Positions 62,407 through 63,999 of a stretch of 64,000 nt of DNA are shown piece by piece (within the stretch, counting starts at the first letter, position 1; every line of letters begins with the position of its first letter). Source of the DNA: an uncultured virus (IMG/VR IMGVR_UViG_3300028384_001589) (taxonomy: Duplodnaviria > Heunggongvirae > Uroviricota > Caudoviricetes); the IMG/VR virus record IMGVR_UViG_3300028384_001589. One strand, 5' to 3'. The position numbers and the translations under genes are program-made. The notes below the pieces were generated by a model. It was not told where the DNA came from. It saw only the letters and a list, made by a program, of their open reading frames with translations, and did not search any database.

Positions 62407-62856
62407 TTATGCATCATCTGTGAAATCGTCGTCGTCAGTTCCTGCAAGATCGTCATCACCTGCTTCTTCAACTTGTACGCCGCCGTCTGTTAAGTCTGCA
62501 TCAAAGTTCCATGCAGTTGACTTACCGTCTAATGCGTTAGTACCTGTTGCACTTGGAGCCGCTAATGTAACTTTGCGTCCTGAAATTTTAGATACGCCAT
62601 AAGTTTCACCGTCGTCACCTTTTACTGAAATAGACATTTGACCTGCTGTCAAAGCCGCTGGTAAAACACCAGTTTGTAGAACACAAGTGTATTCTGTATC
62701 TGTTGCTCCAATTTCAGCAACAACAAAACGCTTTGATCCTTTTTGTCTTACAATATGACCTTCAACAACTGATGTACCGTTGTGAAAGTTAACTTTAATT
62801 TCGTTTCCTCCAGCAGTTGGTTCGCCGAAGTATCTTTTATTAAGTGGTCTTCCCAT
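62407..62856 (-). CDS. Hypothetical late protein (possible capsid decoration or structural)
   Basis: Start reassigned to ATG at 62856 (AGGAGA RBS; MGRPLNKRYFG). Flanked by a late promoter and a hairpin. Confidence 0.7.
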   Translation of the reverse strand: MGRPLNKRYFGEPTAGGNEIKVNFHNGTSVVEGHIVRQKGSKRFVVAEIGATDTEYTCVLQTGVLPAALTAGQMSISVKGDDGETYGVSKISGRKVTLAAPSATGTNALDGKSTAWNFDADLTDGGVQVEEAGDDDLAGTDDDDFTDDA

Positions 62857-62950
62857 TTGTTTTCTCCTATATAAGTAGTCCAATGCGGGTTCTATCCGCT
62901 ACGCTGTGGGTACAGCATAAGTCCGCCTTGCGGCTCGCTATTTGACACAA
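62857..62950 (-). promoter_or_regulatory. Candidate structured 5' leader RNA
   Basis: After ATAAATA (62952-62958) come hairpins GCC-GCAA-GGC, GCTGT-ACCC-ACAGC and GCGG-ATAGAAC-CCGC, with a possible closing stem, just before the RBS. Confidence 0.55.
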
Positions 62951-62954
62951 GTAT

Positions 62955-63374
62955 TTATCTAATTGTATAGAATGGTGATTTTTTCGGGGTTACAGTTAAA
63001 TTGATAAAATGCCTAATAAAATCAAAACGTGTGGCAAGTAATCCAAATAATTCGGTATTCATTCCTTCGTTGATCATAGTATAACTGCTTTTACCTATAT
63101 TACTATAATAATCAATGCTTATACCGTATTCAGGAAATACACCCGTAACAAACAAACAAGTATCACCCAATTCTTTGGCAGATAATCTATAAGGTTGTTT
63201 TAATGCTAAGAGTTCTTCTGCGAATGTAGTTTCAGGTAGGAAATTTGGTTTGTCAATTTTATCTGCAAGAAGCATTACTACGTAGGATTCAATTTCAATA
63301 GGTAATTGATATCCTGTAGTCTCGGATGCCTCCTTGACAATATCATAAAAGGCCGTTGTATATTCGTCCTTCAT
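62955..63374 (-). CDS. Hypothetical protein
   Basis: 139 aa with YVVMLLA, LGDTCLF.TG.FP and YY..IG.SSY. CTAAATA upstream at 63380-63386. Confidence 0.7.
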   Translation of the reverse strand: MKDEYTTAFYDIVKEASETTGYQLPIEIESYVVMLLADKIDKPNFLPETTFAEELLALKQPYRLSAKELGDTCLFVTGVFPEYGISIDYYSNIGKSSYTMINEGMNTELFGLLATRFDFIRHFINLTVTPKKSPFYTIR

Positions 63375-63391
63375 ACAAATATTTAGTCATT

Positions 63392-63429
63392 AAAAAAGGT
63401 TTATCCAGTCTCCCGAATAAACCTCTTTT
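63392..63429 (-). terminator. Rho-independent terminator closing the ncRNA candidate
   Basis: Minus strand AGGTTTATTCGG-GAGA-CTGGATAAACCT followed by a T-run. Confidence 0.8.
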
Positions 63430-63651
63430 AGGCATAAGCAAAATAGGGAGGACTCGGTTATACCTCCAACCCCTCGCCGCAGATACCATTCTGAAACCAG
63501 GGAGCCTGTAGCCGCTCGGTAGAGCGATGTGACTCAGCGTATTTCTACTACCAAGCCTGGGTACCACCCCTTTACAGCCAAGTTCGACGCTCTGGTAAAC
63601 GCCTCTTCCTTGCACTATATACATCGGACCGCTAAATCCTTTGTAACTTAT
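63392..63651 (-). ncRNA. Candidate free-standing structured non-coding RNA (~260 nt)
   Basis: GC-rich island with nested stems, bounded by a sigma70 promoter and an intrinsic terminator. The overlapping ORF is implausible. RNA family not identified. Confidence 0.65.
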
Positions 63652-63657
63652 AATACT

Positions 63658-63686
63658 AATATAACAAATCTTTGTGAAAAAAGCAA
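63658..63686 (-). promoter_or_regulatory. Sigma70-type promoter for the ncRNA candidate
   Basis: Minus strand TTGCTT-17 nt-TATATT with an extended -10 TGn. Confidence 0.6.
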
Positions 63687-63724
63687 TGGTTAGGTTAACC
63701 AAAATAGATGTTTTGAATAGTCAA

Positions 63725-63754
63725 TAAAAAAGGGCGACATAAAGCCGCCCTTTT
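63725..63754 (-). terminator. Rho-independent terminator of gp23
   Basis: Minus strand AAAAGGGCGGC-TTTAT-GTCGCCCTTTTTT, just after the capsid stop codon. Confidence 0.85.
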
Positions 63755-63771: not shown

Positions 63772-63999
63772 TTATGAGAAAGATACGTTTGCTACAGACA
63801 CACGTGCCAAGTAGTCAGCCGCATTACCAAGAGATGATGCAGTGTTGTTTAACTCTACATAACCATATCTTGTCATGAACGAAACTACTGGTTCGAATGT
63901 ACCTGGATCAAGTACAACACCTGAAGACATTAGCGGAATGTATGGGCAATAGAATGCCGCCGCATCTGATTCTGATGTTCCTTTGTATCCAACAAGTAC
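63772..63999 (-). CDS. gp23: Major capsid protein, T4 gp23-like (C-terminal 75 aa only)
   Basis: Not in the ORF track. Manual translation gives VLVGYKGTSESDAAAFYCPYIPLMSSGVVLDPGTFEPVVSFMTRYGY...NVSFS*, the gp23 C-terminal signature. Confidence 0.96.
   Translation of the reverse strand, partial: VLVGYKGTSESDAAAFYCPYIPLMSSGVVLDPGTFEPVVSFMTRYGYVELNNTASSLGNAADYLARVSVANVSFS

Follow-up and report, generated by a model that had tools for sequence, protein, structure and literature searches.

A diverged, free-standing manA-type RNA gene behind the major capsid gene of an uncultured jumbo phage

Genomic context

The window (the whole 64,000-nucleotide stretch analysed, virus record IMGVR_UViG_3300028384_001589) belongs to an uncultured aquatic giant (jumbo) phage of the Gp23 type. 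The 3′ end of a Gp23-family major capsid gene lies at its edge, and the nearest cultured relatives of the encoded C-terminus are jumbo phages of 285–469 kb (72–76% identity). The RNA gene is located on the minus strand, with the terminator of the capsid gene (hairpin arms 63754–63746 and 63736–63728) on one side and an ORF of 139 amino acids on the other (Table 1). Although the 139-aa protein has no match in Pfam or PHROG, its gene is linked to the capsid gene in all 20 loci in which it was found.

The 139-aa ORF is preceded by the motif TAAATA, which we take to be a late promoter from its likeness to the late promoter of T4. Across the window this motif lies at most 45 nt upstream of 21 of the 45 ORF starts. 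It is rarer overall than expected (51 observed versus 89 expected), and in seven cases it stands just 5–6 nt ahead of the ATG, a spacing that suggests leaderless late mRNAs.

The initial annotation had proposed an independent structured noncoding RNA gene at this site, consisting of a promoter behind the gp23 terminator, about 200 nt of GC-rich sequence and a second terminator. Each of these parts is recovered here: the promoter register recurs in homologues, the GC content is 0.505 in 63400–63599 versus 0.31–0.34 in the adjoining 200 nt windows, and the fold covaries. A simple signal scanner listed neither of the two terminators nor the TTGCTT/TATATT promoter register.

Table 1. Features of the RNA gene and its surroundings (window positions)
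Feature	Position	Strand	Basis or remark
Gp23-family major capsid gene, 3′ end	63772..63999, continuing beyond the window edge	-	PF07068, E 1.7e-19; phrog_138 major head protein
Intrinsic terminator of the capsid gene	63726..63754	-	Perfect 9 bp inverted repeat and U run
119-codon ORF over the RNA, spurious	63343..63702	-	Open in 5 of 87 copies
Sigma70-type promoter	63658..63686	-	-35 TTGCTT 63686-63681, 17 nt spacer, TG-extended -10 TATATT 63663-63658
manA-type RNA, 218 nt	63434..63651	-	RF01745 match and covariation
End pairing of the RNA	63651-63646 with 63439-63434	-	5′ and 3′ ends
P1, variable 5′ hairpin	63620..63645	-	Rfam alignment; 55–75% paired, badly aligned
P2, closes the central junction	63618-63615 with 63446-63443 (63443..63618)	-	100% paired, 3 of 4 pairs compensatory
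P3, conserved internal loop; L3 63597-63592	63579..63612	-	Paired-cell count across homologues
P4, closes the P5-P6-P7 junction	63578-63573 with 63510-63504 (63504..63578)	-	92% paired, 6 of 6 pairs compensatory
P5; loop L5 GUGGUA 63567-63562, partner of L7	63559..63570	-	Covariation
P6, long; GNRA tetraloop 63545-63542	63531..63557	-	Top covarying pair
P7; loop L7 UACC 63521-63518	63513..63526	-	Covariation
P8; loop L8 AUGGUA 63489-63484, partner of L9	63470..63502	-	Basal helix 96% paired, 4 of 4 pairs compensatory
P9; 11 nt loop L9 63462-63452	63447..63467	-	100% paired
Intrinsic terminator of the RNA gene	63392..63429	-	GAGA-capped stem and U run
TAAATA late-promoter-like motif	63380..63385	-	5 nt upstream of the next gene's ATG
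139-aa ORF, separate unit from the RNA gene	62955..63374	-	Relatives in 20 viral loci

Relationship to the manA family

The best match in an Rfam covariance-model search, as the initial annotation had recommended, is manA (RF01745), with 45.3 bits and an E-value of 1.5e-10 over 63634–63437 of the minus strand (model positions 1–192 of 192), a score below the gathering cut-off of 55.2 bits. At gathering level Rfam lists nothing for this stretch. ARAGORN finds no tRNA or tmRNA gene, and the Rfam matches that rank next resemble terminators and fall outside the RNA core, in agreement with the earlier judgement by eye that this is neither a tRNA nor a tmRNA. That annotation had also considered a relation to manA possible; the relation stands, the element being a member of a catalogued class. 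Matches to manA are likewise obtained for 19 of the 20 homologues scanned, seven of them at or over the cut-off, and the copies at loci L022 and L042 and in Pelagibacter phage Mosig also pass it. The element thus grades into the manA family despite the score of the window copy, and it is almost certainly a manA homologue.

In the available text of Weinberg et al. (2010; PMC2864571), manA is described from marine metagenomes, from T4-like cyanophages and from two gammaproteobacteria. It is graded there as cis-regulatory and probably a riboswitch, with a tentative pseudoknot, and the genes that it precedes are mannose, nucleotide, ibpA and photosynthesis genes. As far as the accessible portions go, the cis label is repeated in a 2023 cyanophage paper, which calls it unverified, and in a 2025 review. 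A description of manA as a stand-alone gene was not found in the literature covered, which included few subscription papers and no preprint supplements.

The window copy shares with manA, to the extent that the family is documented in RF01745 and PMC2864571, the full-length match, the order of the helices, a GUGGU-type L5, an ACC-type L7, an 11 nt L9 and a marine T4-like phage setting. The junction after P2 reads GUGCAAGGAAGA in the window copy versus GUGaCUGAAUAA in the RF01745 consensus, and by eye it is closer to two NZ_ rows in the part of the 2010 alignment that could be compared (PMC2864571). Between P2 and P4 the letters GUG..GAA.A and AA..UG are kept and the others differ; the invariance of this junction among the homologues is partly forced by the search pattern. 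Unlike manA in its 5′ UTR position, the window copy has a promoter and a terminator of its own. We file it as a manA variant because, on testing, the window copy falls short of the Rfam cut-off and does not occupy a 5′ UTR position. It is not a new class; it is a real RNA gene, a diverged and free-standing variant of manA.

Homologues, secondary structure and covariation

Three sources supplied homologues: the DNA flanking genes for relatives of the capsid protein (80 loci retained), that flanking genes for relatives of the 139-aa protein (20 loci), and a pattern scan (at least 120 stretches). All homologue counts are lower bounds. The scan fixed the letters GUGCAAGGAA, UAC and AACUUG, so that their invariance is partly built in, and this also applies to the basal helix of P3 and part of L3. 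A profile search returned 148 matches, 133 of them near full length and with 93 distinct cores, 87 of which were aligned by sequence alone, without fitting the structure; one false match (L201), three incomplete copies (L151, L161 and L181) and two of another subtype (L022 and L042) were omitted. The median identity of the 87 copies to the window copy is 67%.

The window element is a folded RNA gene. For the minus strand the folding z-score is −3.17, with one of 200 shuffles as good, and for the plus strand it is 0.06. Without the terminator the core reaches only z = −1.92, and therefore it is covariation and not folding energy that carries the case. A model of 69 base pairs is paired in 82.9% of cells across the 87 homologues, against 67.1% for shuffled and 35–53% for slid controls, the latter comparison being favoured by the fact that the model was drawn on the window copy. 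Compensatory changes occur in 57 of the 69 pairs; a check of covariation had been suggested with the initial annotation. Covariation analysed without prompting from the model recovers P2 and P4 to P9, and RNAalifold reports compensatory changes in 23 of 29 pairs. The resulting fold contains nine helices, P1–P9, around a central junction; P1 and the upper part of P8 are poorly aligned. L6, the loop of P6, is of the GNRA type in 67 of the 87 homologues.

Seven pairings had been proposed from the sequence beforehand, and four of these hold across the 87 homologues: GGCGU/GCGUC (76% of cells paired), the GUA-GAAA-UAC hairpin (93%), CGCUC/GAGCG (84% in one part, 74% in the other) and the 3′ hairpin GGAGG/CCUCC (100%). 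The other three find no support. CCAGG/CCUGG (59%) and the AACC/GGUU pseudoknot (58% with one candidate GGUU segment, 55% with the other) were rejected on their low pairing, and the 3′ loop assigned to the latter pairs with L8. GGUACC/GGUAUC is paired in 83% of cells, mostly by wobble pairs or pairs that do not vary, and its formation would disrupt two helices that covary.

Conservation does not follow the codons of the overlapping 119-codon ORF; had it done so, this would by the terms of the initial annotation have spoken against an RNA gene. The length change is not a multiple of three in 50 of the 87 copies, and the identity by codon position (0.71, 0.68 and 0.68) displays no codon pattern.

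Loop–loop contacts and self-assembly

Two loop–loop contacts covary, L5–L7 and L8–L9. The GGU of L5 is replaced by AGU, UGU, UAU or UGC in 30 rows, and in 28 of these L7 carries the exact complement (p about 0.008 over five loop types). A tree from which the loop columns were excluded requires at least nine changes of the L5 triplet. In 23 of the 57 rows with GGU, L7 contains a wobble or mismatch. For L8–L9 the mean longest Watson–Crick run is 4.29 compared with 2.97 after permutation (14 L8 types, p < 1e-4), with co-variants such as AUGGAAU/AUUCCAU, CUGAU/AUCAG and GAGA/UCUC, and the two central G–C pairs are kept in 81 and 82 of the 87 rows. In the window copy the L8–L9 match is short, consisting of three Watson–Crick pairs and a wobble, and five perfect pairs between L3 and L8 equal or better it. 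Across the homologues L3–L8 gives p = 0.10 by L8 type and p = 0.0002 over all distinct pairs, the second value being inflated by related rows. Pairings of L5 with L9 and with L3 are no better than chance among the 87 homologues.

Related RNAs have been visualized by cryo-EM. According to the available text of a preprint (bioRxiv 10.64898/2026.07.01.735769), manA RNAs form closed shells of 8, 10 and 60 subunits built from pentamers; the pentamers of the 60-mer are held by L5–L7′ and L8–L9′ contacts, and one decamer uses L6–P6′, L5–L7′ and L3–L8′. Helix numbers were equated with those of the preprint from its text description only, with the order of the helices and the GNRA loop at L6 as guides. 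On this basis the window copy resembles the 60-mer manA_A0F1 in its L5–L7 and L8–L9 complementarity and the decamer manA_pho34_A767 in that its P6 is long and GNRA-capped and its L3 may match L8; it mixes features of the two groups as far as the preprint text describes them.

We propose that the transcript folds into the nine helices, closed by the end pairing, and that L5 pairs with L7 and L8 with L9, as the covariation supports. By analogy with the manA RNAs seen by cryo-EM, the loop pairs would most likely form between molecules and generate five-membered rings, from which closed shells of 8, 10 or 60 subunits could be built. Judged by this analogy, self-assembly of the RNA is rather probable.

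The same covariation fits a monomeric RNA equally well, since it cannot separate pairing within a molecule from pairing between molecules. L5–L7 and L8–L9 would then be internal pseudoknots and the cages a product of high concentration. A tentative pseudoknot is indeed drawn in the part of the 2010 description available (PMC2864571). The accessible preprint text gives about 3 mg/mL RNA and 10 mM Mg for the cages formed in vitro, claims no role in cells and notes two constructs deposited as monomer models (bioRxiv 10.64898/2026.07.01.735769). Against this, the same text reports that all five named manA constructs are closed oligomers and that five constructs were sized by column in 2 mM Mg. We consider a purely monomeric RNA fairly unlikely and retain self-assembly as the preferred interpretation.

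The transcription unit

The promoter of Table 1 would place the transcription start at 63651, from where a host sigma70 polymerase would produce a transcript of about 260 nt ending at the terminator. Context counts were made on 95 distinct loci with enough flank. A sigma70-type motif is present in the same register in 88 of these versus 52 of 475 shuffles (11%), and the extended TG in 74. A terminator is called at most 95 nt downstream in 56 of the 95 versus 41 of 475 shuffles (9%), by a detector that misses some terminators recognizable by eye (L172 and L228). The terminator stem of the window copy lies wholly 3′ of the manA fold, and its 12 tested pairs have a probability of at least 0.997 in the full transcript. 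Given this predicted constitutive terminator and the late-promoter motif of the next gene, the element is to be regarded as a free RNA gene and not as a leader. Very probably it is a transcription unit of its own, and its promoter type suggests early expression.

Contigs containing the RNA are present in all four metatranscriptome runs examined (seawater, salt marsh, aquatic and marine, from four studies), some without one differing letter and others partly representing the alleles of relatives. They document presence only, with no strand, ends or level, in libraries that may contain DNA. One relative's contig (X1) extends 255 letters beyond the 3′ end of the RNA. Contigs over 62984–63382 or 63668–63724 were not found in the four runs; because relatives diverge in these flanks and contigs document only presence, these gaps do not speak for a discrete transcript.

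A cis-acting leader or riboswitch controlling the downstream gene, the classification given to manA in the accessible text of PMC2864571, is very unlikely here. Its invariant junction bases could form a pocket, and among the 39 of 95 contexts without a called terminator there are six, Mosig included, in which an ORF begins 25–35 nt behind the RNA. A gene with a mannose-6-phosphate-isomerase domain follows the copy at L111 and an Hsp20 gene that at L140. The terminator stem of the window copy, however, does not overlap with the fold as an expression platform would, and terminator sequences have been replaced between cores that are 96–97% identical (L031 and L085). The window copy is not in a 5′ UTR position, and 56 of the 95 contexts are terminated. 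The genes downstream of the homologues, among them those for a cold-shock protein, gp32, Hsp20, rubrerythrin, redoxin, SPASM and cytidylyltransferase, are unrelated and have no pathway in common; of 16 tested, eight have a Pfam match. Even the namesake gene at L111 is cut off from the RNA by a terminator and a TAAATA motif, which suggests that the 5′ UTR label of manA came from adjacency. Where manA copies lie next to tRNA or tmRNA genes, as some do, they may be processed out of longer transcripts.

Distribution and allele exchange

The manA-type RNA is an accessory element with a patchy distribution. It occurs downstream of the capsid gene in just nine of the 44 capsid loci with at least 1.5 kb of downstream sequence. 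The three nearest cultured jumbo phages gave no match in a search with Mosig as a positive control, which could miss remote variants, and among partial jumbo-phage contigs the RNA is found in one of five and in none of five, fragments that prove no absence.

Near-identical phages swap manA alleles. Only 35 of 6417 positions separate L095 from L096, and 30 of these fall inside the 216 nt RNA (2359–2574), a pattern that points to allele replacement by recombination. Compared with the window, L096 has 99% of the core in common and only 78% and 58% of the flanks. The shuffling of modules among helices was also considered and was dropped, as a four-gamete test for whole-helix shuffling among the 47 closest alleles yielded no sets.

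A previously unannotated copy resides in the cultured Pelagibacter phage Mosig EXVC030M, a member of the Kyanoviridae with a 141 kb genome (MT647606.1, 108163–108379). It is 75% identical to the window copy over 57% of the query, has the same type of promoter and scores 206 bits with the model of this study and 64 bits with Rfam manA. Unlike the window copy it lies 25 nt ahead of a rubrerythrin gene and has no called terminator.

The position behind the capsid gene could point to a packaging or prohead RNA, which like the phi29 pRNA would form a five-membered kissing-loop ring on a capsid vertex. The manA pentamer is indeed made by kissing loops in the preprint text available (bioRxiv 10.64898/2026.07.01.735769), and the phi29 prohead RNA, as far as the accessible parts of its descriptions go (PMC5066667, PMC4201828), is likewise phage-encoded and self-associates by kissing loops, keeping structure and not sequence (PMC5066667). 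The two RNAs share no demonstrated homology, and the pRNA is essential in its phage family in contrast to the patchy manA (PMC5066667, PMC4201828). The low occupancy of the capsid slot and the negative search of the three closest cultured jumbo phages argue against a packaging role, as do copies beside gp32 or tRNA genes. In addition, T4-type packaging motors are not known to need RNA. We regard a prohead RNA as highly improbable and the favoured reading remains that of an accessory, self-assembling RNA.

In the same slot L093 (2748–2976) and L099 (about 2735–2975) carry a far more remote manA-like RNA, with the same promoter ahead and the same 139-aa gene after it. This variant has no Rfam match at E ≤ 1, folds at z = −2.84 and lacks a terminator visible by eye; its sisters L267 and L290 score 24.4 and 21.4 bits on manA. 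Seven viral non-coding stretches (L241, L242, L245, L258, L264, L293 and L305) contain a core of GUGGCAGAAYAA, a hairpin and UAAUGC. Five of these (L241, L242, L258, L264 and L293) were scanned and give no manA match at E ≤ 0.05. Stretches with this core may be further remote relatives of manA.

Possible function

Taken as a whole, we hold with moderate confidence that the element is a free-standing, early, accessory manA-family RNA that self-assembles. What the assembly might do is more tentative. Early in infection the RNA could engage a host or phage protein by its shape, serving as a multivalent scaffold or decoy, with no ligand sensing and no pairing to mRNA. We favour this role, itself doubtful, because the helices vary freely, the loops match each other and not a target, and the neighbouring genes are interchangeable. 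In more speculative terms, manA RNAs may be early phage genes and not leaders, their product an RNA-only, pentamer-based shell in infected cells, with alleles and even remote variants exchanged between related phages in one promoter-equipped slot downstream of the capsid gene because the paired loops would decide which RNAs assemble together or which host factor is bound.

A base-pairing sRNA (which the promoter and terminator would suit), a selfish passenger (which the allele swapping would suit) and a protein-coding gene (which the ORF spanning the RNA would suit) are together scarcely plausible, given that the exposed loops match each other and change together and leave no fixed seed, that the strong structural constraint speaks against neutrality and that the ORF is broken in 82 of the 87 copies.

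The locus on its own adds little, the manA family being already known. Since 2010 it has been listed as a probable leader or riboswitch (PMC2864571, in the text available), and the 2026 preprint adds cages in vitro and, in its accessible text, claims no role in cells. The promoter, the constitutive terminator and loops that stay complementary through at least nine changes argue that selection keeps a free RNA and its loop contacts. Whether natural RNA-only shells exist thereby becomes a testable question, and the cultured phage Mosig, which carries a copy, provides a system for it.

Neighbouring RNA elements

Several other structured RNAs are found near manA copies. In the window a freshwater-2 RNA (RF02980, 68.1 bits) at 62937–62854 of the minus strand, preceded by TAAATA at 62957–62952, leads into the ORF that begins at 62856, and a simple pattern places this RNA directly behind manA in 24 of the 95 contexts. 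At L152, L174, L175, L127 and L042 manA is preceded, at a distance of a few hundred bases, by a glutamine riboswitch aptamer (RF01739). Permuted tmRNA genes of the alphaproteobacterial type are present near manA at L101 (phage Mosig, 541–844) and L154 (435–766), a hint that those phages have alphaproteobacterial hosts.
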